DNA from: a bacterium
GTDB taxonomy: Bacteria; Patescibacteriota; JABMPQ01; JBDRIV01
Assembly: GCA_043815505.1 (NCBI GenBank)
Contig: JBDRIV010000002.1
Location: 116,784 to 180,783, forward strand
Direction: 5' to 3'
Length of the DNA: 64,000 nt
Part shown: positions 1-64,000 of the stretch, piece by piece
How the letters are laid out: every line of letters starts with the position of its first letter
Position numbering within the stretch: position 1 is the first letter of the stretch
The notes under the pieces: model-generated
What the model was told of the DNA's origin: nothing
The model's input: only the letters and a program-made list of their open reading frames with translations
Database searches by the model: none
Made by a program: the position numbers and the translations under genes

Positions 1-33
1 ATTATAATGAAGAGTAGTCCCCAACCAAAATTT

Positions 34-11445: not shown

Positions 11446-11521
11446 TGGTGGACCCAAGCGGGATCGAACCGCTGACCTCTCCCATGCCATGGGAGCGCTC
11501 TACCAGCTGAGCTATGGGCCC
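11446..11521 (-). tRNA. tRNA-Ala (anticodon GGC), CCA encoded
   Basis: Reverse complement folds as a cloverleaf: GGGCCCA acceptor with G3:U70, anticodon loop AUGGCAU, T-loop TTCGATC. Confidence 0.8.
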
Positions 11522-11769
11522 ACGTCGGAGTAATGCTCCTGCATTTGTAAATCCACTGTTGCGAATTTACTTCAACATACGCATTTCTTCTCTTTTCAGT
11601 CGAAATTCGTGATCGTCCCGCTTAGCGGGACTCTAATCCTAATTTCGAGTGTGTCTTTTTTATCTCTAATTATCTACGTGTTCGTACCACAAAGCGGTAA
11701 AACGTTTTTGAACTAATTAGCATTATCGACTGAAATTATTTATATACTAAAATATTGTGCAAGTCAATA

Positions 11770-11843
11770 TGCCCCCGGCAGGAGTCGAACCTGCGATATC
11801 CACGTTAGGAGTGTGGTGCTCTATCCAGCTGAGCTACGGGGGC
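11770..11843 (-). tRNA. tRNA-Arg (anticodon CCT)
   Basis: Reverse complement: GCCCCCG acceptor, D-arm GCTC/GAGC, anticodon loop CTCCTAA, T-arm GCAGG-TTCGACT-CCTGC. Confidence 0.75.
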
Positions 11844-19164: not shown

Positions 19165-20211
19165 TTATAAAACTCTTTGGTACATATAGTCTGCCAACTC
19201 AACATAGAAGTCTTGGCTGTTTTTGGTAAAGTTTGATTTCTTAATAATCTCTCTGGCTTCACCTGTAATTTGGGCAATACTTGAAGTCATCTGTTTATCA
19301 ATATTTTTTGCCTTAGCCAAAGTTGTTACTTTGACCATTTTTTCACGTGAAACATTAGCTTGGCCAAAATCACTCATATCCTTTTTATCCAGTTCTGAAA
19401 ATAAAACTTTAACCAAGGGCGTTAATTTGCCTTCTTTAAAATCAGAGCCTACTGGTTTACCAAGAGTTTTTTCGTCACCAAAAAATCCTAACAGATCATC
19501 TTGCATTTGAAATGCTTCACCAATGAGAGTGGCATAACTGGCCAGGATTTCTAGGTTTGTTTTTTCGGTACGTGCCAAAATTGCTCCCGAAATTATGGGG
19601 CTAAGAGTTGTATAGCCAGTAGTTTTAAGTTTCACAATTGTTTCAGTGGGAACATTAGTTAAATTCTTTTCGTTTGAATAATGAATATCAATAAATTGAC
19701 CGATGCCGGTATCAAACAAACGATTTTGAATATAAGTTAAAGCCGGAACTTTTATTTCGTCTTCAAAATCACAATTTAAAATTACTGACATGGCCAGATG
19801 AGAAAGAAGGTCACCGGCCAGTAAGGCTACTTTGTAACCGTATTGCTTAGCTCTTTTTTCCTCGTAAACCACGTGAACTGTTTTTTCGCCGCGCCTTATT
19901 TCATCTAAATCAATTATATCGTCGTGAATTAAAAGGGCGGCGTGAGCCAGTTCTAAACCGGCGGCAAAATCTAAAATAGCTTTTTTATTTTCACCACCAA
20001 AAAATTCATAAGTGGCAATTAAAAGAGAGGCCCGAAAGCGTTTGCCGCCTCTGCTTACCAAATTGCAAGCTTCAGCAAACAAATCTTTCACATTTTCGTC
20101 ATAAGAATCATAGGTTTTTGAAGCTTCATTTATAATGCTGTTCAAATGGGAATTAACCAAATTCTGGTGTTTGGTTAAGGTTGTTTGAAAAATGTTTTTG
20201 CTACTCATCAT
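19165..20211 (-). CDS. polyprenyl (isoprenyl) diphosphate synthase
   Basis: First aspartate-rich motif LIHDDIIDLDEIRRG and second motif FQMQDDLLGFFGD. Start set at MMSSKN to remove the overlap with the divergent gene. Confidence 0.8.
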   Translation of the reverse strand: MMSSKNIFQTTLTKHQNLVNSHLNSIINEASKTYDSYDENVKDLFAEACNLVSRGGKRFRASLLIATYEFFGGENKKAILDFAAGLELAHAALLIHDDIIDLDEIRRGEKTVHVVYEEKRAKQYGYKVALLAGDLLSHLAMSVILNCDFEDEIKVPALTYIQNRLFDTGIGQFIDIHYSNEKNLTNVPTETIVKLKTTGYTTLSPIISGAILARTEKTNLEILASYATLIGEAFQMQDDLLGFFGDEKTLGKPVGSDFKEGKLTPLVKVLFSELDKKDMSDFGQANVSREKMVKVTTLAKAKNIDKQMTSSIAQITGEAREIIKKSNFTKNSQDFYVELADYMYQRVL

Positions 20212-38511: not shown

Positions 38512-40737
38512 TTACTTTTTATTTCGAGGGGAAAAGAATTTTTTCTTGTCTCTTTTAGGAAAATCGCGCTTGTTGTTATCACGCTTGTCCTGATTTTTAT
38601 TGAAGGAATCATTTCTCTCGCGCGGAGCACTATTACGCTCTGGTCGAGGCAGCATGGCGCGACGAGAAAGATTAATACGTTTTTGACTATCAATTTCAAT
38701 TACTTTTACAGTTATTTCGTCGCCAACTTGAACTTCATCCTCAACCTTATTAATGCGCTTATGAGCCATTTCCGAAATGTGAACTAAACCTTCAACTTCA
38801 GGCAGAATTTCTACCATAGCACCGAAATCGAAAATGCGAGTAACTTTACCGGTGAAAATTTCACCCGCCTCAATTTCACGAGTTAAGTTTTTAACAATTT
38901 CTACAGCTTTTGGCACATCAGCTTCGTGCGTTCCGGTAATCATCACTAAACCACTGTCTTCAATGTCTATATCAACACCAGTTTCAGCAATAATCTCGTT
39001 GATTTTCTTACCACCTGGTCCAATTACATCACGGATTTTATCGGGATTGATGGTGAGGGAAACAATTCTCGGAGCAAATTCAGATAAATCTTTGCGAGGT
39101 TTAGCAATGGCTTTTTCCATAACTGCTAGAATTTTCATTCGTCCAGCTTTGGCATCAGCAAATGTTTGCTTAACAATTTCGTCAGTTAGTCCTGAAGTTT
39201 TGGTGTCTAATTGAATGGCGGTAATACCATCTTTAGTACCGGCAATTTTGAAATCCATTCCACCTTCGTTGTCTTCTAAATCTTGCAGGTCAGTTAGAAT
39301 TTGGTATTTTCCTTCGGCGTTGGAAACGAGTCCCATCGCAACTCCAGCCACGTGTTTAGGAATATTAACGCCGGCATCCATTAAGGAAAGTGATGATCCA
39401 CAAACTGCAGCCATGGAAGATGAGCCATTTGATCCCATCACTTCTGTTACCAGTCTTATAGTATAAGGGAATTTTTCTTTTGGTGGAATTAAAGATTCCA
39501 AAGCTTTTTCTGCTAGCGAGCCATGACCAATGTCACGCCTGCTAGGTCCACGCATCGGTTTAACATCAGCCACAGAATAAGGAGGAAAATTGTAATGATG
39601 CATGTAGCGTTTTTTGTATTCTTCTTCCATCTCATCAATTATTTGTTCGTCTCCAGGAGAACCGAGTGTAGTGACGGTTAGAACTTGAGTTTCACCGCGC
39701 ATAAAATAACCAGTACCATGTGTGCGAGGTAAAATTCCCACCTCGGCAGTTAAAGGGCGAATCTCATCCATGGCACGACCACCAATTCTTTTTCCTTCAT
39801 TAAGAATCTTGTCACTTATCATTTGTTCAACCATTTCCAGCAAATATTGTTTAGCTAATACTGCTTTACTTTCGTCTTCAGGAAATTTTTCTTTGACAGT
39901 TTTTGCTACCTCATTGTTTAAGTCATAAACAAGATCCTTACGCTTAAGCTTAGTTTCTCCAAACAAAACTTCTTCAATCTTTTTGCCAGCCAGTTCAGAA
40001 ACTATGTTACAAACTTTTTCATCTTTAGCTGGTGCCGGAACATCCATTTTTTCTTTGCCAATTTCTTTTGTAACTTTGTCAAAGAAATCACACATTTCGC
40101 CTAAATATTTTTTAGAGTAATCGAAAGCTTCAAACATTCCTTCTTCCGAAACTTCCTTAGCTGCGGCTTCAACCATAATGACTTTATCCTTTGTTCCAGC
40201 TAAAACTAGGTCCAAATCACCTTCTGTTCTGTCTGAAAAATTGGGACAGAAAATCATAGTTCCGTCTTTTCTTCCTAGTCGCACAGCACCAAGGGGACCA
40301 TTAAATGGGACATCAGAAATCTGACAAGCTAGGGCGGCAGCTAAAAATCCGGGAACATCTGAATCGTTTTCACCATCAAAAGACAGAACAGTAACAATCA
40401 CTTGGAGATCGCGAGTTATATGTTGAGCAAATAAAGGTCTGAGAGCGCGGTCGATCATGCGTGCAGTTAATACTGCTTCGTCTGATGGGCGACCTTCACG
40501 TTTAATGAAACGTGAACCCTTAATTTTTCCGGCGGCGTACAATTTTTCTTCGTAATCAACCATAAGTGGAAAGTAGTTGGCACTTGTTTCATCACGACTC
40601 ATAACAACTGTAGCTAAAACTACTGTGTCACCAAGTCGGCACACAACTGATCCATTTGTTTGATTGGCAATTTTGCCAATTTCAAAAAAGAAGTTTTTAT
40701 CACCAACTTCCAAAGTGTAATTTTTTATTTCGTTCAT
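38512..40737 (-). CDS. pnp: polyribonucleotide nucleotidyltransferase (PNPase) with an Arg/Lys-rich C-terminal tail
   Basis: Two RNase PH domains, KH and S1 domains. After S1, a roughly 55-aa basic tail (RRAMLPRPERNSAPRERND...RDKKKFFSPRNKK). Confidence 0.9.
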   Translation of the reverse strand: MNEIKNYTLEVGDKNFFFEIGKIANQTNGSVVCRLGDTVVLATVVMSRDETSANYFPLMVDYEEKLYAAGKIKGSRFIKREGRPSDEAVLTARMIDRALRPLFAQHITRDLQVIVTVLSFDGENDSDVPGFLAAALACQISDVPFNGPLGAVRLGRKDGTMIFCPNFSDRTEGDLDLVLAGTKDKVIMVEAAAKEVSEEGMFEAFDYSKKYLGEMCDFFDKVTKEIGKEKMDVPAPAKDEKVCNIVSELAGKKIEEVLFGETKLKRKDLVYDLNNEVAKTVKEKFPEDESKAVLAKQYLLEMVEQMISDKILNEGKRIGGRAMDEIRPLTAEVGILPRTHGTGYFMRGETQVLTVTTLGSPGDEQIIDEMEEEYKKRYMHHYNFPPYSVADVKPMRGPSRRDIGHGSLAEKALESLIPPKEKFPYTIRLVTEVMGSNGSSSMAAVCGSSLSLMDAGVNIPKHVAGVAMGLVSNAEGKYQILTDLQDLEDNEGGMDFKIAGTKDGITAIQLDTKTSGLTDEIVKQTFADAKAGRMKILAVMEKAIAKPRKDLSEFAPRIVSLTINPDKIRDVIGPGGKKINEIIAETGVDIDIEDSGLVMITGTHEADVPKAVEIVKNLTREIEAGEIFTGKVTRIFDFGAMVEILPEVEGLVHISEMAHKRINKVEDEVQVGDEITVKVIEIDSQKRINLSRRAMLPRPERNSAPRERNDSFNKNQDKRDNNKRDFPKRDKKKFFSPRNKK

Positions 40738-40912: not shown

Positions 40913-41025
40913 GGCAAGCCCCGCTCCAGTTTTTTAGAACTTAGATACTTATAGTTAAGTAATGCTATTTAGTATCAATATAGTTGTTGAAATTTTTAAG
41001 TTCAATAAAACTGGGGCGGGGCAAG
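40913..41025. repeat. about 113-bp inverted-repeat element, copy A
   Basis: GGCAAGCCCCGCTCCAGTTTT ... 73 nt AT-rich ... AAAACTGGGGCGGGGCAAG. Confidence 0.8.
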
Positions 41026-41107
41026 TCATTAGGGTTCATGTTTAGCCACACAATAATTTTGTTCAAAAAATAATCCCCAATCGATTATTTCCGATTGGGG
41101 ACACTGA

Positions 41108-41884
41108 CTAGAATCCTTCAAATATTGATGGAGCGAAAATTATCGTTACACCAATTACTTCTAGACTTGCGGGCTCATCAAGATACTCAAGATCGTATTC
41201 CTCTCTATAAAATGAGAGTCCGAATCCATATATTGGCTTGATTTGTATTTCTATGCGTTTACCAAATCCCGACCAGTTCTCCTTTTTTACTTCTTCCCAG
41301 CTAAGATATCGATCATGACCGGATCTGGCCGTGAAGCCGGTATATGGCCATCCATATTCGACTGATATCGATGATTTCCAGCACTTAAAAACAACAACAT
41401 CAAGTCCAATGTGTGGAATGGCATCAAAGAAGACTGGAGAGTCAAAGTAAAATTGAGTGAAGACGAAAGCTGCGTCAAATGCAGGTCGTGGATCATTATC
41501 CTGTTGTTGATAAGTGTATATTCCACTTCTAAAGTCATCATCGCGCATGGGGATTCTTAAATCTAGCCCGAGAGTTAAGCGAAGCCGCTCTGATCCATAC
41601 GATATGTCACCACCAGCCGTAGTTGCGCCAATGCGATAACTGTTACCGGCAGCTATATCAGTTGTTGTTTCTCCGTCAAAAAGCCAGTAATCGTCAGGGT
41701 GAGCGGGTGTTGTTTGGATTGTATCTCCAAGTTCGACATCGCAGATCATAAGATCAATAGAATATCTTAAGCTACCAGCAAAGAAAAGAAGCTTTTCCTC
41801 TTCTTTCGTTTCTTGACAAAAAGAAATTGCAGATGAGATAGTAAGAAAAATCAAAACTATAAAAAGAACACATTTTTGCCACAT
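41108..41884 (-). CDS. secreted beta-rich protein of unknown function
   Basis: Signal peptide MWQKCVLFIVLIFLTISSAISFC; Tyr/Gly/Asp-rich sequence with alternating hydrophobics; C-terminal ...SIFEGF. Confidence 0.5.
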   Translation of the reverse strand: MWQKCVLFIVLIFLTISSAISFCQETKEEEKLLFFAGSLRYSIDLMICDVELGDTIQTTPAHPDDYWLFDGETTTDIAAGNSYRIGATTAGGDISYGSERLRLTLGLDLRIPMRDDDFRSGIYTYQQQDNDPRPAFDAAFVFTQFYFDSPVFFDAIPHIGLDVVVFKCWKSSISVEYGWPYTGFTARSGHDRYLSWEEVKKENWSGFGKRIEIQIKPIYGFGLSFYREEYDLEYLDEPASLEVIGVTIIFAPSIFEGF

Positions 41885-41967
41885 CTTATTTCCTCCTTAA
41901 ATAAAAGTTGTTAGAGCAAAAAGACATATCAAATTACCAATAATGTTTGTTTTTGTCAAATAAAAAT

Positions 41968-42002
41968 CCCCAACTGCGTACTGCTTGCAGTTGGGGTTTT
42001 CG
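41968..42002. terminator. bidirectional-looking Rho-independent terminator
   Basis: CCCCAACTGC-GTACTGCTT-GCAGTTGGGG followed by TTTT, preceded by an A-run. Confidence 0.55.
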
Positions 42003-42875
42003 TTACGCAGCCGGTTGGCTGTGAACGAGAATTTTGCGGCCGAGTGAGCGCAGCCACTGAGGAATGAATTCACTCAAGCTTTTTCTGGTCAGAGGTTGAT
42101 TTAGTTCTTCCGGCGGTTTCGGCGGATTCACTAAATCCAGCATCTGCAAAAGTTCCCGTTTGATTTCCGGACCTTTCTCCAGATAATCAGCATAAGTTTG
42201 GCAACGGCTGATGATCAGAACCAGTTCGGCTAGAGAGTGCGAAGCAATCTCATTGCCGAAAAAGAGATCATTTTTGTCCACGCCGTCCGGTTCCCAGCGA
42301 ATTACATAGAGAGCTGTCCTCGCCATATCGGCAAAAACCACATCGCTCTCATTGCGAATTCCCTTGGGAAGAACGAAGCGAACAAATTTCCAGTTGGTAG
42401 CTGGTGGTCCGTAGATCTTACCTTCACCCTTGGAATCAACTGCCACACCGCCGAGAATATCTCGCATCATGGGATCATAACCGGGCAAATTAGGGGTTAC
42501 CTTCTCATCGCCGAGATGATAGTGAGGAGGTTGACCATCTTCGTAAAAAGCATGGAATTTTAATCTTTTACCCAGGCGTTGTAAAAGGCAAGCACTAAGC
42601 CAAGTTCCAGAACATACCAAAATCATAATACCTGTTAACAGTAGTCCGAACAGCACGTCCTGGTCAATGATTTTTTGCAAGTAACGGGCATAGTGATTAC
42701 CGCTTGTGATCAAAAAATACCCACTTCCCAAAGGTATTATTACCAACAGGGAAATGAGAAACAGGATAAGTGATCTTATAAGCCCGCTGTGATGCAGGGC
42801 TGGTAGGATCAGTTTGTGAACTTGCGCAACGATCGTGTCGTTGCAGTAAACACAGTTAGTTTTCTGTTGAGTCAT
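42003..42875 (-). CDS. membrane protein of unknown function with an N-terminal CxYC motif
   Basis: Start MTQQKTNCVYCND with a GGAGGA SD. 2-3 TM helices, then a roughly 180-aa soluble domain. GC clearly higher than neighbours. Confidence 0.5.
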   Translation of the reverse strand: MTQQKTNCVYCNDTIVAQVHKLILPALHHSGLIRSLILFLISLLVIIPLGSGYFLITSGNHYARYLQKIIDQDVLFGLLLTGIMILVCSGTWLSACLLQRLGKRLKFHAFYEDGQPPHYHLGDEKVTPNLPGYDPMMRDILGGVAVDSKGEGKIYGPPATNWKFVRFVLPKGIRNESDVVFADMARTALYVIRWEPDGVDKNDLFFGNEIASHSLAELVLIISRCQTYADYLEKGPEIKRELLQMLDLVNPPKPPEELNQPLTRKSLSEFIPQWLRSLGRKILVHSQPAA

Positions 42876-43188
42876 CGTTTTTCCTCCTTCATAAACGTGG
42901 GGGTTTATGATATAGGAAGATTTGTTCAGTAGTACAATATTATTGTACAACTGGGTATATAATCAACTCTGCCCTTATTTATGGGAAGTAGTTGTTATTT
43001 CAGATCATGGATTTTCAAGTGAGCAACTTAGAATATTATACTATATAAGCTGAAATGTCAAGTATTTGGAGCAAGAAAAAGAGCGGAAATCACGAGATTT
43101 CCGCCCCTGCTTAGTCAGTTGTTACTTTCTTGGTTTTTTGAAATTGGTGAATCGAACTTTGCCAGAAACACCTTTTCCTCCAGAATCT

Positions 43189-44499
43189 CTAGCTTTTTTT
43201 TGCGCCCTCCCCACCTTTTTTCAGTGCTTGATTAATGTCTTTAGGGGCCAGAATTTCTTCTTCTTTTTTATCGCAAAGATGAGAACCTCGGTTACCTGAC
43301 CTGATTTGATCCATGAGGTTGCCGGGCCTGGGAGGGCGACCGAGACAATGTTTTGAATCGCGCACGCCATCGATTTCGGACACAATAACAGGCCTTTGGG
43401 TTGGAACCTGCTTAGGTGGATCCAAAACGATATCAGATACAAGGTCTAGATCCTTACTTTCTTTCGGTCCAATCGAAAAGAGATCATCGCCCTCATCTTC
43501 TAATGATTCCAAAGCTGCATCAGCGAATTCCTCGTCCGCATCATTACCTGCTAAAACAACTTTAGCACCACTGAAATCAGGAACATCAGCGTTCACTGGC
43601 GATTCATCATCCACAGTAGCCAAATCGGCTTCGGCGAATTCATCTTCTGCGTCACTCGGAACATCCAGTTCAGCTACCGTCAAGGAATAGGAATTAATGT
43701 ATCTGAGTATTTCACTCATTATTTCCAGCATAGACTCATTGGGACTATTCTCAACTAGTCCATACAGATATTCATGACGAGGCCAATTTATCACCTGAGA
43801 AAAGTTTTCAAACAGTTTCATGATAATTAAAACCAGGGGAGAGAAGAAAGGGTAAATTAAACCAGCTTTTTTGTTATCCAATAAATGGATCGGGATAAGC
43901 CTAACATAGGATTCGAAAGTAGAATTTTCATTGGTTTTAATCTCAATGAATTCAGAATTAATAACCCAAGGGTTATTTAGAATGCCGGCGGTCCCAAACG
44001 ATTTGATGTGTATTGTTTTGTCACGAAGATCGAAAATAAATACTACACCAGCAGTCGCGTTTCGTGGTTTTCCTATTAGCTTTTTGGAAATACCTAGATC
44101 ATTATTTTTGAGAAGATGAAGCCTAGCTTGCAAATAGTCATTCTTATCTAAATAAACCATGAGTGATACATGATCGTTGTTTCTTACTTTCCGCATATAT
44201 TTTCTGTGTAACATTTTTGTGCAGTAAGCCAGGATTAGTGTAATGAAAACTGCGAGAAAAAGAAAGAGATTAAACCTTTCCAGGCTGACCACTTTCGACA
44301 GCAGACTCTGCACAAAGGCCACATTCACTGTGTTCATGAAAATAGCAATCGTAAGAGTACTTGTAAGCAGAAAGAAAACAATCAGAAGAGAAGAAATTAA
44401 AAACCAAAATTCTTTAAGAAAAGACCATCTCCTTACTTTTCCGAAAATAGGGAGAACCTTAGTGGACAAAACTTTCTTTGTGATTTGCTGATCAGTCAT
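43189..44499 (-). CDS. membrane protein of unknown function with a long acidic low-complexity C-terminal region
   Basis: Start MTDQQ with an AAGGAG SD; three TM helices; central globular region; D/E-rich tail (DVPSDAEDEFAEADLATVDDE...). Confidence 0.45.
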   Translation of the reverse strand: MTDQQITKKVLSTKVLPIFGKVRRWSFLKEFWFLISSLLIVFFLLTSTLTIAIFMNTVNVAFVQSLLSKVVSLERFNLFLFLAVFITLILAYCTKMLHRKYMRKVRNNDHVSLMVYLDKNDYLQARLHLLKNNDLGISKKLIGKPRNATAGVVFIFDLRDKTIHIKSFGTAGILNNPWVINSEFIEIKTNENSTFESYVRLIPIHLLDNKKAGLIYPFFSPLVLIIMKLFENFSQVINWPRHEYLYGLVENSPNESMLEIMSEILRYINSYSLTVAELDVPSDAEDEFAEADLATVDDESPVNADVPDFSGAKVVLAGNDADEEFADAALESLEDEGDDLFSIGPKESKDLDLVSDIVLDPPKQVPTQRPVIVSEIDGVRDSKHCLGRPPRPGNLMDQIRSGNRGSHLCDKKEEEILAPKDINQALKKGGEGAKKS

Positions 44500-44672
44500 A
44501 ACAATTCTCCTTATAGTGGTATTTACAAAATTGAATATGTGAAAGGGCAAATTGCCAGAATTAGCAACGGTTTATAATATCATTAATTATAGAATTGGCA
44601 AGTAGCAGTCTTTTTAAAAAAAAGAGAGTCAAAATAATCTAGACTCTCGTATATGTTTTGAAATAAGTGTCA

Positions 44673-45392
44673 TTAAATCCAAGCTCGATCTGAGTGAAAT
44701 CTTTGTCCGATAAAATCTGTCACTTCCTTCGAAGATCTACAGTTTGCGATAATATGTGGAATTTTTTCAGCTGAGAAAATGAATTTCTTACCTGTTCCTT
44801 TCAATTTTATCACAGCTAAAAGATTACTCACAAGACCTGATTCACAAAAACAGATATTGAGATATTCTGGAGGAATATTATTATTGACAAAACCACCAAG
44901 AACCTCCCAAATAGATGAAAAATATATGTAAGAAGAATTATCTGTGTCTATTTTGTGTCCAAGAATACAGCTATTTTTTTTTCTGTTATTGGCGGTACCG
45001 TCAAAAGCAATTATGACAGTCAACTGTTGGTCTGTAAATACAGTGTTGGGGTACTTCACGTCATTATTTTTTGCAGAACAGGGTGGCGTGCTATGAATAT
45101 GTGTGATTCCTCCATTATCGTTTTGTATATGCCCAATTGAATGAGTGAAGTTTCTCAAATAGTATTCACAAGTTAAGCAAAGAATTAAAATCCCGAAAAT
45201 GATAATTCCAGATGTTGTGGATGTGTAGGGTATGTTAGCAGTTTTAGCTAAGTAGAAAAAGAACCCAAGTACAATCACCCAAAGTATTCGCCGAATCAGA
45301 TTGGTACCAGATAAAGGTTTGAATTTTGTGATTCTTGAAATGAAGTTTGTACAACTGGAACAAATCGGATAGTCTTTTCCCGCTTTACGCAT
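44673..45392 (-). CDS. membrane protein of unknown function with an N-terminal CSSC motif
   Basis: MRKAGKDYPICSSCTNF with an AGGAGG SD, two TM helices, C-terminal soluble domain. Architecture parallels 42003..42875. Confidence 0.45.
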   Translation of the reverse strand: MRKAGKDYPICSSCTNFISRITKFKPLSGTNLIRRILWVIVLGFFFYLAKTANIPYTSTTSGIIIFGILILCLTCEYYLRNFTHSIGHIQNDNGGITHIHSTPPCSAKNNDVKYPNTVFTDQQLTVIIAFDGTANNRKKNSCILGHKIDTDNSSYIYFSSIWEVLGGFVNNNIPPEYLNICFCESGLVSNLLAVIKLKGTGKKFIFSAEKIPHIIANCRSSKEVTDFIGQRFHSDRAWI

Positions 45393-46005: not shown

Positions 46006-46075
46006 ATCAGTAAATTAATAGTTAATTCAATCGGCCATAAGCCATAAGCCATTGGCCATTTGCAGGGCACGAGCC

Positions 46076-46462: not shown

Positions 46463-47404
46463 ATGGCTACGCAAAATTCATTAAAAGGGCTTATCCAAGA
46501 CTTCTTGGATTATTTAGAAGGGGAGAAAAACTGCTCTCCTTTAACAACCAGAAATTATCATTCTTATTTGACCGATTTTGCTAACTCTATGAAAGTTTCT
46601 CAGCCAGCCGAGATAACAGATAGTAAGTTGCGAGATTATCGAGTTGTTTTAAATAGAAGAAAAAATTCTAAGGGAGATTATTTAAAACATTCTACCAAGA
46701 ATTATTATTTAATTGCTCTTCGTTCCTTTCTGAAGTATTTAGCCAAGCGCGATATAAAAAGTCTAATGCCTGAAAAAATTGAGTTGGCCAAAGTGGCTGG
46801 ACGTGAGATAGATTTTTTGGAGCCAGAAGAACTCGCTCGTTTGCTTGATGCACCAGATGCAGGAACAATGCGTGGATTGCGTGACAAAGCAATTTTAGAA
46901 CTGCTGTTTTCCTCTGGTTTGCGTGTCAGTGAATTATGTTCACTTGATACTAAGAAAATAAATTTGAAAAAAGATGAATTTTCTATTCGCGGAAAAGGAG
47001 ATAAGTTGCGGGTCGTTTTTCTTTCTAACACCGCTAAGTACTGGTTGAAAAAATATAATGATGCCAGACAAGATGGTTTATCTCCACTATTCATAAGCTA
47101 TCCAAAAGGGAAAGCTAGTCTCGATGTTTCCGATCCAGAAAAAAGAAGATTAACCCCAAGGAGTATTCAAAGGTTAGTTCATAAATATGCTCTTATTGCT
47201 GGAATTACAACCAAGGTTACACCCCATGTTTTGCGTCATAGTTATGCCACAGATTTACTAATGGGTGGTGCTGATATTCGTTCGGTGCAGGCCATGCTTG
47301 GGCACGCTTCTATTACCACTACGCAAATGTATACGCACATTACTGACAAAAGATTACGCGAAGTTTATAAGAAGTTTCACGGGAAAACTAGAAGAGGCGA
47401 GTAG
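46463..47404 (+). CDS. tyrosine site-specific recombinase, XerC/XerD family
   Basis: N-terminal core-binding domain. Catalytic R (LRDKAILELLFSSGLRVSEL), the HVLRHSYATDLL box and LGHASITTTQMYTH with the Tyr nucleophile. Confidence 0.8.
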   Translation: MATQNSLKGLIQDFLDYLEGEKNCSPLTTRNYHSYLTDFANSMKVSQPAEITDSKLRDYRVVLNRRKNSKGDYLKHSTKNYYLIALRSFLKYLAKRDIKSLMPEKIELAKVAGREIDFLEPEELARLLDAPDAGTMRGLRDKAILELLFSSGLRVSELCSLDTKKINLKKDEFSIRGKGDKLRVVFLSNTAKYWLKKYNDARQDGLSPLFISYPKGKASLDVSDPEKRRLTPRSIQRLVHKYALIAGITTKVTPHVLRHSYATDLLMGGADIRSVQAMLGHASITTTQMYTHITDKRLREVYKKFHGKTRRGE

Positions 47405-47539
47405 TCTTTGTTCAGAGTTTGTCGAGGGGTTGTTAATTAGATGCTATAATGTTATAGTAACGCGGAAATTATTTGGCATATGGCATATAGCAAATGGCAA
47501 ATAGTACATAATCGTTTACAATTCAAACGAGGAGAGCAT

Positions 47540-47568
47540 CCAGCCCCAGTTTGAAAAACTGGAGCTGG
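47540..47568. repeat. hairpin-only mini copy of the inverted-repeat element
   Basis: CCAGCCCCAGTTT-GAAAA-ACTGGAGCTGG. Confidence 0.6.
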
Positions 47569-47570
47569 AG

Positions 47571-47760
47571 AGCACGGATTCAAATTGAGAAGAGGAATAA
47601 ATACAGTCGAAATTAGGAGCGCAGGTGAACGTAGTGAACCGAGCACGCGTTTAAATTGAGAGTAGGAATAGTACAGTCGAAATTAGGAACGGAAGGCGAA
47701 GCCTGAGTACGGATTTCGACTGAGAGGAGGAGCAATACGGAGGTCGGTGAAGTTCAATTA
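47571..47760. repeat. about 70-bp imperfect tandem repeat, 2.6 units
   Basis: Units AAATTGAGAAGAGGAATAAATACAGTCGAAATTAGGAGCG... and AAATTGAGAGTAGGAATAGTACAGTCGAAATTAGGAACGG..., each bounded by GAGYACGGATT. Confidence 0.8.
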
Positions 47761-47770
47761 ATTGAACTTC
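47749..47770. promoter_or_regulatory. perfect 22-bp palindrome GAAGTTCAATTAATTGAACTTC, 25 nt upstream of tRNA-Arg
   Basis: Read directly; fully self-complementary. Confidence 0.8.
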
Positions 47771-47795
47771 GTAGACCGCAGTATTGGTCCGACGA

Positions 47796-47867
47796 GTCCC
47801 CATAGTTCAACGGATAGAACGAGAGCCTTCTAAGCTCTAGATGTAGGTTCGATTCCTACTGGGGATA
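47796..47867 (+). tRNA. tRNA-Arg (anticodon TCT)
   Basis: GTCCCCA acceptor, D-arm GTTC/GAAC, anticodon loop CTTCTAA, T-arm GTAGG-TTCGATT-CCTAC. Confidence 0.8.
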
Positions 47868-47946
47868 GGGATAATTATATGTAAGCAAAACTGTTTAGCT
47901 AAACCCTGTTGTAGACATTGATATAGTATTCTGATATGCTTTAAAC

Positions 47947-48411
47947 ATGAATGTAAAATGCAAGATTTGCTCAAAAGAGTTTTATGTAAAACCATCCCAT
48001 AAAAAAATGGGTTGGGGAAAGTTCTGTTCATTAAAATGTGCATATATTGCAAGAAGAAAAGGTAAGGAATTAGATTGCGCAGAATGTGGAAAGAGAATAT
48101 ACCGATCCCCGAAGCAACTTAAGAAGTCTAAGTCACAATTATATTTTTGTACAAAATCATGTCATCAGAAGTATAAAAATAAGTTTATGTCTGGCGAGAA
48201 TCATCCGCAGTGGAAGTACGGGAAATATTACTATCTTCCGCTAATGAAGAGAAAGAAGAAAATGATATGCATGAAATGTAATGAAAAAAATAAAAAAGTT
48301 TTGGTTGTTCATCATATAGATAGAAATAGAAAAAATAATGAATTGGAAAATCTGATTTGGTTATGTAGGAATTGTCATTATCTAGTTCATCAGTATAAAG
48401 AAAAGTTTTGA
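47947..48411 (+). CDS. HNH endonuclease with N-terminal Cys-rich zinc ribbons
   Basis: Four CxxC pairs in the N-terminal 100 aa; C-terminal HHIDRNRKNN...LCRNCH HNH motif. Confidence 0.65.
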   Translation: MNVKCKICSKEFYVKPSHKKMGWGKFCSLKCAYIARRKGKELDCAECGKRIYRSPKQLKKSKSQLYFCTKSCHQKYKNKFMSGENHPQWKYGKYYYLPLMKRKKKMICMKCNEKNKKVLVVHHIDRNRKNNELENLIWLCRNCHYLVHQYKEKF

Positions 48412-48418
48412 ACGATAT

Positions 48419-48490
48419 GGTGGCCATAGTTCAATGGTAGAACACTAGCTTGTGGCGCTAGCTACGAGAGTTCGATTCTCTCTGGTCACC
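48419..48490 (+). tRNA. tRNA-His (anticodon GTG) with encoded G-1
   Basis: G-1 plus GTGGCCA acceptor, anticodon loop TTGTGGC, discriminator C73. Confidence 0.8.
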
Positions 48491-48602
48491 CGGCAAAGAC
48501 ATCTTCGTAACAGAAGGTGTTTTTGTTTTGGATAAAAAAGGACCTGCGGACCGAGTTGGTCGCGCAGGCCTTGCCAAATTCATGTTGCATGTTGAGAAAG
48601 TA

Positions 48603-49519: not shown

Positions 49520-52009
49520 ATGAAAAGCTGTAATGCCATTCTGTGTCTCGTGGTGGTTTTTCTGCTGTCTGTTATGACAGCGGATGCCGCAGTTTTGCGG
49601 GTCCCTCAAAGCTATCCGACCATCCAGGTTGCTGTTGATGCCTCCGTGGATGGCGACACGGTGCTGGTGGACGAAGGCACCTACACTGGTGTTGGTAATC
49701 GTGATATCTATATCGAAAGGAAAAAGATAACTGTAAAGTCGGTGTCTGGACCCACTAAATGTATTATCAACTGCGAGAATAAAGGTCGTGCCTTCATGAT
49801 CTATCTCGAAGGTGATGACTCTCCAACTATCAATGGGTTTACCATTGTAAATGCATCCAAGTTTGTTGGTGGTTTCTATGATGATGGCGGTGGAATCTAT
49901 TGCCACTATGTCAATCCAACCATCAAAAACTGCATTATTATGAATTGCAACGGTGGTAATGGCGGTGGAATTTATCTCGATAATTCCAGTCCAGTCATTC
50001 AAGATTGTGTGATCGCGAACTGTGAAGCTACAAGATTTGGCGCTGGAATCTCTGGTCACAGCGAATGCTCTCCAAAAATTTTGGATTGTATCATTGACAA
50101 TAACAAAACGAACGATGGTGGCGCTGGAATTGCTATTGGTTATAATGGAAAGCCAGAAATAACCAATTGTATTATTACCAACAATCGTTCTAAAGATTCA
50201 TATGGTGGTGGTATCTCAATTTATCAAGATGCTGTTGGAAAAATTCAAAAATGTACAATCATTGGGAATTACTCTTACTCTGGAGGTGGAGGAGTTTACG
50301 TTGGTGGTTGTGGTATTGGTGAAAACCAATTAATCGAGAATTCCATTGTATGGGGAAATAGTGCAGTATCTCAAGGTGACAACATCTTTACCTATAATGA
50401 AGAAGACCTCATCGTCAAATTCTCTTGCATCGAAGGTGGTTGGGCTGGTCAGGGTAATATTAGTCAGAATCCGCAGTTTCGAGATGGTCCTCCCGACAAT
50501 GCATGGAAAAACACTCACTGGCCGTCAGGTTTGAATTCTGACGCCTACTATCTGAAACAAATCGCTGCTGGTGATGCAGTAGATAGTCCCTGTGTAGATG
50601 CCGGTAATCCCGGCACAACTGTTACAGGAACTACGCGCAACGATCAGGTTATCGATTCTGGCACGCCCGATATGGGTGCTCATTACAGAGAATTTTTCAT
50701 CGGATACAATCCGACTAACATGATTTTCACAGCTTCAGAAGGGGAAATCCCCGCGCCACAGTATGTGGAAATTTGGCCGGACGGTGATGGTTCAACTGGT
50801 ATGAACTGGACAGTTAGCAAATATGTTCCATGGATTTCTCTTGATCCGCTTTCTGGAACTTCAACAGGAGAAGTTGATCAGGTGGCAGTGAATATCGACA
50901 CTAGCAACATGAGTAGAGGAACCTACTCAGGCAAGATTTATGTTAATGCCAATGATGCTTTTTGGCCTACAGAAAGTATCCTGATTACAGTTAGCATCGG
51001 TGAAACGGTCACGGGCCCAAAGCTCGTTGTGGGGCCTGGCCCCGCTTACGGTAATGATTCTGTTGTTCGAGTTTTTCCTCCGCAGCAGAATGCAACCTAT
51101 GAATTGGAGTTTGCCGCTTACGGCGTGCCCCATTATGGGGTCAACGTTACGGTAGGGAATTTCGGTGGTGGCGACATGATCGTTACCGGCGCTGGCCCTG
51201 GGGCTGTATTTGGTCCTCATGTTAGAGGATTCTTGCCCAACGGTATTCAACTACCTGAGTTTTCCTTTCTCGCTTACGGAACCAACAAATGGGGTGTAAA
51301 CGTCGCTTGTGGTAATCTGGATGATGACGAAGCAGATGAGATTATTACTGGCGCTGGCCCAGGAGAAATTTTTGGCCCGCACGTGCGGGCGTGGAACTAT
51401 AATGGTTCTACTATTTCTTCCATAGCGAAGGTAAGCTATTTCGCCTATAAAACCCCTAAATGGGGAGTCAACGTAGCGGCTGGTGATGTGGATGGTGATG
51501 GTTACGACGAAATCATTACCGGCGCAGGACCAGGTGCGGTATACGGCCCTCACGTCCGGGGTTGGGATGTGGACTCTGATTCCGCGGTAGCCATACCAGG
51601 AATCAACTTCCTTGCTTATGGAACCAATAAGTTTGGTGTTAATGTGACAGTCGGAGATGTCGACGGCGACGGCTACGACGAAATCATTACCGGCGCTGGT
51701 CCAGGATCTGTGTTTGGAGCTCATGTGCGTGGTTGGAACTACGACGGCGCGCAAATCACAGAACTTCCTAACTTTTCCTTCTTTGCTTGGTCGCCTAACG
51801 ATATACGTTATGGCGCCAAGGTTTATGCCGGTGCTGATTTGGACGGTGACGGCAAAAATGAACTGATCGTTGGCGGTGGTCCTGATCCGAATATGAATAC
51901 CGAGATCAAAGCCTACCGCTATAATGGAAGTATCGTTGAATGGTTCTCCATCTACGAAACTTTCGTCGGATATACGAAGGGAACCAGCATCGCTGCTGGT
52001 AACTTCTAA
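49520..52009 (+). CDS. secreted right-handed beta-helix (pectate-lyase-like) protein with C-terminal FG-GAP/VCBS-like beta-propeller repeats
   Basis: Signal peptide. PbH1-like repeats (NCIIMNCNGGNGGGIY, CVIANCEATRFGAGIS). At least five repeats of GVNV..GD.DGDGYDEIITGAGPG..FGPHVRGW with DxDxDG Ca-binding-like loops. Strong AAGGAG SD. GC about 10 points above surroundings. Confidence 0.75.
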   Translation: MKSCNAILCLVVVFLLSVMTADAAVLRVPQSYPTIQVAVDASVDGDTVLVDEGTYTGVGNRDIYIERKKITVKSVSGPTKCIINCENKGRAFMIYLEGDDSPTINGFTIVNASKFVGGFYDDGGGIYCHYVNPTIKNCIIMNCNGGNGGGIYLDNSSPVIQDCVIANCEATRFGAGISGHSECSPKILDCIIDNNKTNDGGAGIAIGYNGKPEITNCIITNNRSKDSYGGGISIYQDAVGKIQKCTIIGNYSYSGGGGVYVGGCGIGENQLIENSIVWGNSAVSQGDNIFTYNEEDLIVKFSCIEGGWAGQGNISQNPQFRDGPPDNAWKNTHWPSGLNSDAYYLKQIAAGDAVDSPCVDAGNPGTTVTGTTRNDQVIDSGTPDMGAHYREFFIGYNPTNMIFTASEGEIPAPQYVEIWPDGDGSTGMNWTVSKYVPWISLDPLSGTSTGEVDQVAVNIDTSNMSRGTYSGKIYVNANDAFWPTESILITVSIGETVTGPKLVVGPGPAYGNDSVVRVFPPQQNATYELEFAAYGVPHYGVNVTVGNFGGGDMIVTGAGPGAVFGPHVRGFLPNGIQLPEFSFLAYGTNKWGVNVACGNLDDDEADEIITGAGPGEIFGPHVRAWNYNGSTISSIAKVSYFAYKTPKWGVNVAAGDVDGDGYDEIITGAGPGAVYGPHVRGWDVDSDSAVAIPGINFLAYGTNKFGVNVTVGDVDGDGYDEIITGAGPGSVFGAHVRGWNYDGAQITELPNFSFFAWSPNDIRYGAKVYAGADLDGDGKNELIVGGGPDPNMNTEIKAYRYNGSIVEWFSIYETFVGYTKGTSIAAGNF

Positions 52010-55367: not shown

Positions 55368-55460
55368 TTTGTTTCTTGTAAAGTAGTTTTAGTATCAGGA
55401 ACCATTTTTGGTTCCTTTTACGATAGAAGTGGCAAATGGCACTTTGCATTTATTTTAAGA

Positions 55461-55566
55461 GGAGCCCCGCCCCAGTTTTATAGAACTCAAATGCTTTAAG
55501 TTAAAAATTACTTTTTAGCATTATTGAATTAGATTATATTGAGTTTTGAAAAACTGGGGCGGGGCG
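55461..55566. repeat. inverted-repeat element, copy B, abutting tRNA-Arg
   Basis: GGAGCCCCGCCCCAGTTTT ... 69 nt AT-rich ... AAAACTGGGGCGGGGCG. Confidence 0.8.
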
Positions 55567-55570
55567 ACGA

Positions 55571-56731: not shown

Positions 56732-56932
56732 GGTCTTGTTACCCAAAGCGTGATCCGCCTTTGACAGAAAAACAATTATTTTATTAAAACGTCTTTTCTA
56801 CTGAGTGGAGGGGTGACGGAGTGGACGATCGTGACAGTCTTGAAAACTGTTGTCTCTTCACGGGGACCGTGAGTTCGAATCTCACCCCCTCCGCTCAGTA
56901 GAAAAGTCTTGTCACCCAAAGGGTGATCGCCC
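56732..56932. repeat. cassette: 28-bp direct repeats (GTCTTGTyACCCAAAGsGTGATCsCC at 56732-56759 and 56905-56932) flanking a 15-bp inverted repeat that directly abuts tRNA-Ser
   Basis: IR-L GTCTTTTCTACTGAG (56791-56805) and IR-R CTCAGTAGAAAAGTC (56894-56908) extend the tRNA acceptor helix. Confidence 0.7.
56807..56893 (+). tRNA. tRNA-Ser (anticodon TGA)
   Basis: GGAGGGG/CCCCTCC acceptor, anticodon arm ACAGT-CTTGAAA-ACTGT, long variable arm GTCTCTTCACGGGGAC, T-arm GTGAG-TTCGAAT-CTCAC, discriminator G. Confidence 0.8.
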
Positions 56933-56933
56933 T

Positions 56934-57048
56934 CTGGGCGAAAAACCGGAGTCCCCTCACGGGGACCGTGAGCCTGCCTGTCGTTAGGCGGGTTCGAATC
57001 TCCCTAGCCGCGCCTGTGGCTTGCCGCGGGCAGGCACCCCCTCCGCCA
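56934..57048 (+). pseudogene. chimeric tRNA-derived remnant carrying duplicated tRNA-Ser 3' segments and a CCA end
   Basis: Contains TCCCCTCACGGGGACCGTGAG (the Ser variable arm plus T-stem), an embedded GGGTTCGAATCTCCC T-arm-like unit, and ends CACCCCCTCCGCCA, identical to the Ser acceptor 3' strand plus CCA. No matching 5' half. Confidence 0.4.
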
Positions 57049-57070
57049 TTAAAATATTAATAGCAAAAAT

Positions 57071-60066: not shown

Positions 60067-60143
60067 GCTTGTATAGCTCAGTTTGGAAGAGCGCCTGTTT
60101 CTTATGCAGGAAGTCGTGGGTTCGAGTCCCACCTTCGGCACCA
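60067..60143 (+). tRNA. tRNA-Lys(CTT)-like gene with a non-complementary acceptor stem (possible pseudogene or att-site chimera)
   Basis: Canonical D, anticodon (CCTGT-TTCTTAT-GCAGG) and T arms (GTGGG-TTCGAGT-CCCAC) plus ACCA. But the 5' strand GCTTGTA does not pair with the 3' strand CTTCGGC: only 2 Watson-Crick pairs. Confidence 0.45.
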
Positions 60144-60339: not shown

Positions 60340-60416
60340 GGCGTGTTAGCTCAATTTGGTAGAGCAACCGACTCTTAATCGAGAGGTCGCTGGTTCGACT
60401 CCGGCACGGGGAACCA
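60340..60416 (+). tRNA. second tRNA-Lys(CTT)-like gene with mismatched acceptor and anticodon stems (possible pseudogene)
   Basis: GGCGTGT-TA-GCTC-AATTTGGTA-GAGC; anticodon loop CTCTTAA; T-arm GCTGG-TTCGACT-CCGGC; 3' ACGGGGA-A-CCA not complementary to the 5' strand. Confidence 0.4.
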
Positions 60417-60499: not shown

Positions 60500-60620
60500 C
60501 CTTCTCCCAGCGGTTTTCCGATTACCCCCCTCGGACCAACCGCTTTTTTTTATCTCAAATTTCTATATAATAAATAAACCATGTGCCATAAGCCACATGC
60601 TATAAGCCCTAAGCAAACTA

Positions 60621-63715: not shown

Positions 63716-63824
63716 CCCTTGCCCCGCCCAAGTTACTTTAATTGATATAATCGCTTGTTTAAGCATAAATAGTTCTTCTATGGTTTTAATCTATCAATAA
63801 AATTAAACTGGAGCGGGGCTTGCC
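63716..63824. repeat. inverted-repeat element, copy C (opposite orientation to copy A)
   Basis: CTTGCCCCGCCCAAGTT ... 70 nt AT-rich ... AAACTGGAGCGGGGCTTGCC. Confidence 0.8.
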
Positions 63825-64000
63825 ATAGTTGTTTTTTATTGTTAGACTTAAAAAAATTTATTATAAATTTTTTTGCCTGCCTGTTGGCAGACAGGCCTAA
63901 TTTCGGGGGTTACAACCGAAAACGGCTCTTTTAAAAAAGAAATTATGCGCATGAGAGGATGCGCTTTAATTTTGCCTAAATATCAAGCGGAAAAGGAGAA

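Follow-up and report, generated by a model that had tools for sequence, protein, structure and literature searches.

Hairpins dominate the structured leaders of pre-tRNA and rRNA transcripts, with their RNase III stems, and in the rpsO–pnp region of E. coli the pnp leader carries a hairpin that is cleaved by RNase III. Short palindromic units are also built into intergenic repeats, exemplified by BIME/REP in E. coli, BOX in S. pneumoniae and the Correia elements of Neisseria, none of which is known to be similar in sequence to the elements reported here. Palindromic sites beside a tyrosine recombinase gene call to mind dif, a 28–31-base-pair (bp) site at the replication terminus, in which two ~11-bp recombinase-binding arms flank a non-palindromic centre of 6–8 bp; in some single-recombinase systems of the XerS/difSL type, the site lies beside the recombinase gene. 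The genomes of the Candidate Phyla Radiation (CPR)/Patescibacteria are tiny and gene-dense, and, to our knowledge, few non-coding RNAs have been described in them. The definition of dif used here also draws on PMC2958812 and PMC1914069. Among the arrays of structured RNAs, TIGR units of ~36 nucleotides (nt) combine dual 8–12-nt repeats, 9-nt spacers and box C/D motifs beside a Nop-domain gene, one subtype is a tandem series of stem-loops whose palindromic stems vary, and TIGR arrays have been found in CPR bacteria (PMC12045711). Here, we analysed a 64,000-nt stretch of a Patescibacteriota genome (assembly GCA_043815505.1, contig JBDRIV010000002.1, positions 116,784–180,783 of the forward strand; hereafter the window) and, within it, the 391 non-coding bases that separate an Xer-family recombinase gene from tRNA-Arg(TCT).

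An initial annotation, made from the sequence and its reading frames, had described the promoter, hairpin, repeats and palindrome of this region as one composite leader of tRNA-Arg(TCT). Our analysis bears this out, and the leader is probably transcribed. With moderate confidence, we interpret the region as a lineage-specific, modular pre-tRNA leader or spacer that is transcribed and then removed during tRNA maturation.

Anatomy and paralogues of the tRNA-Arg(TCT) leader

The body of the leader consists of three tandem copies of one stem-loop module that arose by local duplication, namely module 0 (47517–47601), module A (47602–47671) and module B (47672–47737), all on the + strand, as is tRNA-Arg(TCT) itself (47796–47867; called by ARAGORN, 71.2 bits with the Rfam tRNA model). 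Module B is intact, as seen from its perfect inverted repeat, its alignment with the leader of tRNA-Ala described below and the covariation over five modules. Its 10-bp closing stem, in which CAGTCGAAAT (47674–47683) pairs with ATTTCGACTG (47713–47722), encloses the small hairpin AGGC-GAA-GCCT (47694–47704), and the purine-rich linker GAGAGGAGGAGC comes next. Module A is a degenerate copy with a weakened closing stem and apex. In the sequence, the copies appear as a ~70-nt tandem repeat, with a 30-nt core at 47570, 47641 and 47705 (83% and 73% identity; spacing of 71 and 64 nt) and a 20-nt core at 47517, 47602 and 47672 (spacing of 85 and 70 nt). The cores of the units are 73–95% identical, their periods are 85, 70–71 and 64 nt, and the repeat matches itself over 52 nt at 85% (E = 4e-10), although Tandem Repeats Finder does not detect the diverged array. 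The 70-bp repeat proposed earlier is therefore real but diverged, and it comprises ~3.5 units instead of the 2.6 originally counted.

The modules are followed by a terminal hairpin of 62 nt, here also called stem-loop B (47729–47790, + strand), with arms of 31 nt that are complementary at 81%. The perfect 22-nt palindrome GAAGTTCAATTAATTGAACTTC (47749–47770) forms its apex; this palindrome is unique, with none expected by chance, and ends 25 nt 5′ of tRNA-Arg(TCT), just as first described. The junction TCCGACGA (47788–47795, + strand) directly precedes the mature tRNA. We also considered stem-loop B as a decayed copy of the 5′ half of the tRNA (16/25 identities, P ~0.015 within the leader), but chance matches just as good occur elsewhere, and we regard this only as a conceivable origin, prompted by the pseudo-fragments in relatives described below.

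By listing the sequence upstream of every tRNA in the window, we found that this leader has paralogues. A 248-nt element on the − strand (11522–11769), ~36 kb away, fills the spacer between tRNA-Arg(CCT) and tRNA-Ala(GGC) and contains two stem-loop modules, a terminal hairpin and the junction TCCGACGT. It is homologous to 47585–47794, with a local alignment score of 94 compared to 37 ± 5.8 for shuffled sequences. The two long copies share the blocks TCGAAATTAGGA, ACG(G/A)ATTTCGACTGA and TCCGACG, the last of which abuts the tRNA; between these blocks their sequences differ, yet each forms a hairpin. The tRNA-Ala element folds with a z-score of −4.6 and reaches 169.7 bits with the covariance model, a match to itself by construction. 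A stem followed by a T-run 3′ of tRNA-Ala was read as a terminator, though the terminator scan did not call it. A shorter leader precedes tRNA-Arg(GCG) (55369–55570, + strand) and is composed of a promoter-like segment, heptamers, a GAGGAG linker, a long hairpin (E2, see below) and a GACGA junction, seen more fully as GCGACGA. The 5′ third of the tRNA-Arg(TCT) leader (47430–47560) is homologous to 55369–55487 (~130 nt, z = 7.3), and the leader is therefore a mosaic of an Arg(GCG)-type 5′ part and Ala-type modules. Each of the three leaders has the orientation of its own tRNA, and its last nucleotides, up to position −1, are (C)CGACG(A/T). They represent a new and so far genome-specific leader family, of which the bacterium has placed copies before three or more tRNA genes.

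Several lines of evidence indicate that these sequences are conserved as structures. Compared with shuffled sequences, the predicted fold is markedly stable, both for the leader together with its tRNA (z = −7.0) and for the leader alone (about −6). In the Arg(TCT) leader, the fold is more stable for the sense than for the antisense strand (−105.2 versus −92.6 kcal/mol); the same holds for the tRNA-Ala copy (−59.6 versus −49.3 kcal/mol), the apex stem of which contains two G-U pairs that become A-C mismatches if read on the other strand. In these folding models, the sense-strand advantage and the G-U pairs speak for an RNA with the polarity of the tRNA. RNAalifold applied to the two long copies yields 27 consensus pairs, six of them compensatory, and the outer stem of the terminal hairpin shows a compensatory change from A-U to G-C between the Arg(TCT) leader and the tRNA-Ala copy. 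After re-cutting, five structural modules can be compared, three from the Arg(TCT) leader and two from the tRNA-Ala leader, each built from a closing stem of ~10 bp, an internal loop that is conserved (UAGGA / GANCACG), an apical hairpin that varies and a GA-rich linker. Over these five modules, 82.7% of the cells are paired as opposed to 64.5% in shuffles (0/500 reach the observed value), and double changes occur in 10 of the 15 pairs, whereas sliding the partner columns lowers pairing to 22–44%.

The leader does not encode a protein, its longest sense-strand open reading frame (ORF) being 24 codons. Nor is it a decayed gene: tblastn with the proteins that relatives encode in the interval from Xer to tRNA-Arg (a GT2 glycosyltransferase, a protein that appears exonuclease-III-like and one without an assigned family) gives no match in 47405–47795. 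Across the window, only tRNAs reach the Rfam gathering score, and at E ≤ 10 the other matches within 47380–47900 fall far under their gathering thresholds, the best of them (E = 0.022) being that of a plastid leader model to the strand opposite the tRNA. Known RNA families, including group I introns, HEARO/omega RNA, RNase P RNA, 6S RNA and riboswitches, were rejected, as none has a credible Rfam match here. Group I introns in Patescibacteria tRNAs, which are detected with RF00028, sit in anticodon loops (PMC13011429).

The upstream part of the leader contains a promoter-like site on the + strand (47430–47458), with a −35 box, TTGTTA (47430–47435), a 17-nt spacer and the extended −10 box TGTTATAGT (47450–47458), overlapped by a second extended −10 box, TGCTATAAT (47442–47450, + strand). 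Both boxes are consensus matches, and a promoter at 47430–47458 is plausible. The extended −10 box had initially been placed at about 47447–47456; the site is present, but its position is 47442–47450. It is followed by a run of about four copies of the heptamer TGGCAWA (47474–47504, + strand), identified with Tandem Repeats Finder and predicted to fold as a hairpin. Similar runs (TGGCAWA, or GCCATAA on the other strand) are found at 46034–46060, 55431–55452 and 60574–60614, all of them intergenic and near gene or tRNA starts.

The apex of module 0 is a GC-rich hairpin (47539–47569) with 14-nt arms that are 93% complementary, and it is unique in the window. Its core, CCCCAGTTT/AAACTGG(G/A)G, resembles the arms of three inverted-repeat elements of 105–115 nt, termed E elements, which have GC-rich feet (GCCCCGCCCCAGTTTT / AAAACTGGGGCGGGGC) and an AT-rich interior. 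E1 (40914–41028, − strand) lies upstream of pnp, E2 (105 nt; 55462–55565, + strand) upstream of tRNA-Arg(GCG) and the third copy (63719–63825, + strand) upstream of an ORF near 63990; E1 and E2 align over their full length. All six elements, that is, the three leaders and the three E elements, are co-oriented with their downstream gene. The earlier description of the apex as a hairpin-only copy of the inverted-repeat element is reasonable: the direct match is weak by itself (just 19 nt, E = 0.22), and the 130-nt homology to the Arg(GCG) leader strengthens it.

Outside the leaders, two tRNA-like genes (60067–60140 and 60345–60407) score 47.8 and 36.8 bits with Rfam and are not called by ARAGORN; as read from the sequence, the acceptor stem of the former pairs poorly. 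They are separated by a 204-nt spacer that begins with GAGCTTGTCGAGGGA, which is close to GAGTTTGTCGAGGGG at 47413–47427. Between 12253 and 13161 and at 19323–19354, the palindrome TGTTTCACGTGAAACA (16–24 nt) occurs seven or eight times in AT-rich sequence (GC content 0.28–0.30). This stretch overlaps or precedes an ORF for a Wzy-like membrane protein and is near a local minimum of the cumulative GC skew. A replication origin close to the tRNA-Ala copy was considered in view of the skew minimum near 12 kb and rejected, as neither dnaA nor dnaN lies nearby and the AT-rich stretch overlaps the Wzy-like gene.

Ancestral neighbourhood of the recombinase and tRNA genes

At the locus, the PNPase gene (pnp; 38512–40737, − strand), four ORFs without family matches, a NYN-domain gene, rpsO (encoding S15) and the gene for the Xer-family tyrosine recombinase (46463–47404, + strand; Pfam Phage_integrase and SAM-like N-terminal domains) precede the leader. 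Its 3′ side is occupied by tRNA-Arg(TCT), a 154-amino-acid (aa) HNH/zinc-ribbon gene (47947–48411, + strand; Pfam HNH) and tRNA-His(GTG) (48420–48491, + strand), in the order originally given. These are followed by a 176-aa ORF on the opposite strand and an 829-aa beta-helix/FG-GAP gene. The genes downstream do have a higher GC content, as noted before, with 0.40–0.51 at 47–52 kb against ~0.35 elsewhere in the window.

The recombinase scores 228.8 bits with the XerA-type NCBIfam model (cut-off 220) and 247 and 242 bits with XerD and XerC, under their own cut-offs. It has intact catalytic motifs, occurs in a single copy within the window and has ~8000 homologues at E ≤ 1e-40, the best of which are ~60–62% identical; all lineage-named top homologues belong to Patescibacteria. 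For comparison, we used other Patescibacteria loci, designated L001, L002, L014, L016, L017, L023, L024 and L026; L005 and L015 also carry Xer relatives. The order PNPase–NYN–S15–Xer recurs in five distant loci (L001, L002, L014, L016 and L017), in some of which one or a few unrelated genes precede Xer. In three of these five, tRNA-Arg(TCT) lies 1–2 kb 3′ of Xer, and two of the three also have tRNA-His further along. From these alignments and gene orders, the recombinase is the core housekeeping Xer of Patescibacteria and not an island integrase. Whereas pnp adjoins the NYN gene in each of the five relatives, four ORFs (258, 315, 453 and 239 aa; 41108–45392, GC content up to 0.446) separate the two in the window, with the E1 hairpin at the pnp-side border of the intervening ORFs. 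None of the four has a Pfam or NCBIfam match.

The HNH gene and tRNA-His are similarly constant companions. The pair was inspected in the window (47947–48491), L023 (331–881), L024 (3001–3550) and L026 (3001–3569), with HNH proteins of 150–165 aa, and in 4/4 cases exactly 8 nt separate the HNH stop codon from tRNA-His(GTG). This spacer always terminates in ATG, the G of which appears to be the encoded G−1 of tRNA-His. The HNH family comprises 111 homologous clusters (37–59% identity), and every source-given name is that of a Patescibacteria (CPR) lineage. The two genes look like fixed partners, and the HNH gene does not look like a homing endonuclease on the move. Since tRNA-Arg(TCT) lies 3′ of Xer in three relatives, and since L023 has the window's own order of tRNA-Arg(TCT), HNH and tRNA-His, the neighbourhood is ancestral.

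The downstream 829-aa gene (49520–52009) contains internal 171-nt repeats, with a GC content of up to 0.51, and its full-length homologues (~42% identity) are encoded on contigs of 2.3–3.5 Mb. All named homologues are from outside Patescibacteria, mostly from Planctomycetota/Phycisphaerae, with one from an FCB-group bacterium, and the gene was probably acquired horizontally. We found nothing that ties its acquisition to the leader or to Xer.

Proposed maturation model and competing explanations

The tRNA-Arg(CCT)/tRNA-Ala(GGC) pair is shared by distant Patescibacteria, but its spacer measures 0 nt in L026 (4731–4875) as opposed to 248 nt here (11770–11843 / 11446–11521), which implies that the cassette is a lineage-specific addition at the 5′ end of the tRNA. 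A metagenome scan with the pattern TCGAAATTAGGA-N(12–42)-ATTTCGACTGA returned 0 matches, a second one for CGRATTTCGACTGARARGAG returned five, none of them near a tRNA or leader-like and all taken as chance, and two scans of viral contigs gave chance matches only. Blastn and the covariance model R1 identified no further member over ~90 kb from 12 other Patescibacteria loci, and on the 64-kb window R1 recovered only its training copies and fragments of the leader itself.

The 5′ side of tRNA-Arg(TCT) is altered in other ways in relatives. At L014 6886–6973, L017 6732–6866 and L023 1–129, a pseudo-copy of nt 1–12 of tRNA-Arg(TCT) is followed by a GC-rich hairpin starting with TCC(G/C), 88–120 nt 5′ of the real tRNA-Arg(TCT). 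A D-arm remnant follows the hairpin in L023 and L014, with just 5 nt in L017. In L017, 27 nt of upstream sequence with a −10-like box were duplicated along with the pseudo-copy, as were at least 46 nt in L023, and the fragment in L014 matches the tRNA of the window, not that of L014 itself. Because of these pseudo-copies and duplications, the 5′ flank of tRNA-Arg(TCT) has been remodelled repeatedly in this phylum by small duplications.

In the maturation model that we favour, transcription would start at the extended −10 region near 47442–47458 or read through from xer, and the RNA would fold into a row of stem-loops composed of the heptamer hairpin, the three tandem modules and the terminal 62-nt hairpin tipped by the palindrome. 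RNase P would then cut after the conserved CCGACGA junction and free the tRNA, while the long hairpins would probably serve as processing elements for a double-strand-specific (RNase III-type) enzyme or as stabilizing elements, and the cassette might benefit the cell. The family would have spread among tRNA loci by duplication or ectopic recombination and not via the neighbouring Xer. In the same window, tRNA-Ser(TGA) (56790–57050) is bracketed by a 14-nt leader–trailer inverted repeat (CTTTTCTACTGAG / CTCAGTAGAAAAG), and ~40 nt 3′ of it lies a 3′-partial tRNA-Ser-like copy broken by two GC-rich hairpins with CCTGCC...GGCAGG ends. The tRNA-Ser stem and the E-type hairpin in the pnp leader fit hairpin-directed RNA processing here and, with the co-orientation of all six elements, lend the model indirect support.

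A number of observations weigh against this model. Covariation was scored on a structure that had itself been obtained from the alignment, over five sequences only, and it cannot separate RNA hairpins from hairpins of single-stranded DNA. The middle module (47602–47671) has a decayed stem, as neutral drift of repeats would give. The promoter is only a match to the consensus, and matches of this kind are no more frequent in the region than in shuffles (10 versus 9.8); relatives have their −10 boxes within 5–12 nt of their tRNAs, and a cryptic proximal promoter may leave the cassette untranscribed. Finally, the family is known from three loci in one genome only; with no member found beyond it, conservation under selection and recent copying are inseparable.

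The initial annotation had instead regarded the palindrome as a binding site for a recombinase or regulator, the repeats as arm-type or att sites and the Xer-like gene as the mark of an integration module. That the palindrome and repeats are DNA sites (dif, att or arm-type) for the adjacent tyrosine recombinase, within an integration hotspot, is in our assessment very improbable, even though an intact Xer-family gene with its catalytic motifs adjoins the site, single-recombinase systems such as XerS/difSL offer a precedent, a probably foreign gene of higher GC content lies 3′ of tRNA-His, and the palindrome can be read as 8 + 6 + 8 or, with imperfect outer positions, as 11-6-11. The palindrome AATTAATT is symmetric through its centre, without the asymmetric overlap region of known dif sites, and its 11-nt arm reading matches at 0/3 outer positions beyond the inner 8 nt. 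It is the apex of a hairpin, and its counterpart before tRNA-Ala differs in sequence and keeps only the hairpin. The same modules recur there, 36 kb away, with no recombinase gene among the annotated neighbours, while Xer itself belongs to the core block of five relatives, none of which has this palindrome or the repeats; at ~53–62% Xer identity, the absence of the palindrome or any model match from these five loci is a weak test. The search for further copies, suggested at the outset, yielded the core TTCAATTAATTGAA once more in the window, inside an 833-aa coding ORF, a count equal to chance, and we rejected the palindrome as a recurrent operator. Moreover, no duplicate of the 25–26-nt 3′ end of either tRNA-Arg(TCT) or tRNA-His was found in the window with ≤3 mismatches allowed, and GC skew shows no turnover at 47.7 kb, the cumulative skew climbing steadily from 46 to 64 kb within the 64-kb window. 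Together with the ancestral order of tRNA-Arg(TCT), HNH and tRNA-His, and within the limits set by 64 kb of sequence and by the distance of the relatives, these results give the picture that the initial annotation itself had named as contradicting integration, with a housekeeping recombinase and no mobile context. An integration hotspot is thus unsupported; what is left of it is weak, namely the probably foreign 829-aa gene and the duplications 5′ of tRNA-Arg(TCT) in relatives.

The principal competitor of the maturation model, unlikely in our judgement yet considerably more credible than integration, holds that small palindromic intergenic repeats, selfish or neutral, settled as a mosaic at tolerant tRNA flanks and were duplicated by slippage, any transcript being incidental. 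The modular build, in which an Arg(GCG)-type 5′ part meets Ala-type modules, would be expected of such a mosaic, as would E hairpins at three further sites, GC-rich hairpins inserted in tRNA-like fragments both in the window and in relatives, a decayed module, the splitting of a tRNA pair that abuts in L026 and the failure of our scans to find a family member beyond this genome. It accounts less readily for an orientation that follows the downstream gene in 3/3 leaders and 3/3 E elements, for an exact and conserved tRNA junction, for the better folding of the sense strand and for compensatory changes that keep the closing stems; in addition, the genome is small and compact, and neither a transposase nor a terminal duplication was seen. 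A small-RNA gene array, in which the tRNA acts as a 3′ processing signal for RNase P and purine/GGA-rich stem-loops act in trans (as a sponge or guide-like), is less probable still, although a small RNA, which the initial annotation had mentioned as an alternative, is nearer to the evidence than its integration reading. The release of RNAs punctuated by tRNAs is an established principle, and in the Arg(TCT) leader structured units follow one another in tandem, their single-stranded linkers being conserved. Over 281 nt, this leader also has the highest GGA density in the window (13–14 motifs, the mean being 3.4; top 0.2%), and purines make up 64% of it. CPR bacteria, moreover, have tandem stem-loop guide arrays (PMC12045711). 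But the tRNA-Ala paralogue has only four GGA in 248 nt, so GGA richness is not a trait of the family, there is no box C (TGATGA) and only one or two CTGA, no Nop-domain match and no other shared uncharacterized gene was seen beside both copies, and the variable parts are self-complementary hairpins, not spacer-like. We would give a slim chance to the idea that the cassettes are new tRNA-punctuated small-RNA arrays of CPR bacteria, whose modules are freed by tRNA processing and act in trans; such action would proceed, for example, through protein binding via the UAGGA / GANCACG internal loop and the GA-rich linkers.

As relatives appear to use promoters a few nt upstream, a structured cassette of 250–390 nt in front of several tRNAs would be an unusual investment, and it would point to a control of tRNA maturation peculiar to this lineage or to a novel family of small RNAs. 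If, on the other hand, the cassettes are only repetitive DNA, tRNA flanks are where streamlined genomes tolerate and accumulate palindromic repeats, which matters for annotation and for the reading of 'islands' beside tRNAs. In either case, a false lead is removed, the neighbouring recombinase being the housekeeping Xer and not an island integrase.

Comparison with known systems

Two known RNA systems were rejected as counterparts. A CsrB/RsmZ-type sponge does not agree with the scarcity of GGA in the tRNA-Ala paralogue, and most GGA motifs of the Arg leader are in linkers. A type III toxin–antitoxin system (ToxI-like) does not fit either, as both arrays are followed by a tRNA and not by a toxin gene. 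With TIGR arrays, the cassettes share tandem structured RNA units in CPR bacteria and the proximity of an HNH protein, given that TasH proteins carry HNH domains. Here, by contrast, the units measure 64–85 nt, TGATGA is lacking, CTGA occurs once or twice, and the 154-aa zinc-ribbon/HNH protein is tied to tRNA-His and not to the repeats. No Nop domain was matched by Pfam among 26 neighbouring ORFs, several of which have no match at all, so that a divergent Tas might escape Pfam. A TIGR array does not fit in unit size or motifs, nor, as far as the Pfam matches go, in partner gene. Xer/dif and tRNA att sites resemble the locus in having a palindromic site beside a tyrosine recombinase and tRNA genes, but an asymmetric centre, a terminus position and a duplicated tRNA end are missing here, and the synteny is ancestral.

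There is also a resemblance to BIME/REP, BOX and Correia repeats, which likewise are intergenic, consist of short palindromic units combined in modules, have a stable predicted fold and occur in several copies per genome; the tandem middle unit is reminiscent of BOX. The window has three mosaic loci and three E hairpins in its 64 kb, all oriented with the downstream gene. Unlike those repeats, the cassette is co-oriented with tRNAs and abuts their 5′ ends via a conserved junction, three loci are known, and no terminal inverted repeats or target duplications were seen.

The structured leaders of pre-tRNA and rRNA, including RNase III stems and the rpsO–pnp hairpin of E. coli, provide the comparison that agrees with our favoured model. 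As in these leaders, the cassette is non-coding, dominated by hairpins and placed on the same strand directly 5′ of the mature RNA, and it ends exactly at the 5′ end of the tRNA, where RNase P would cut; the window also has the leader–trailer stem of tRNA-Ser and the long hairpin in the pnp leader. It differs from them in its length of 250–390 nt, far beyond that of the tRNA leaders of relatives (−10 within ~5–12 nt), and in being a predicted series of tandem modules that is paralogous between unrelated tRNA genes.

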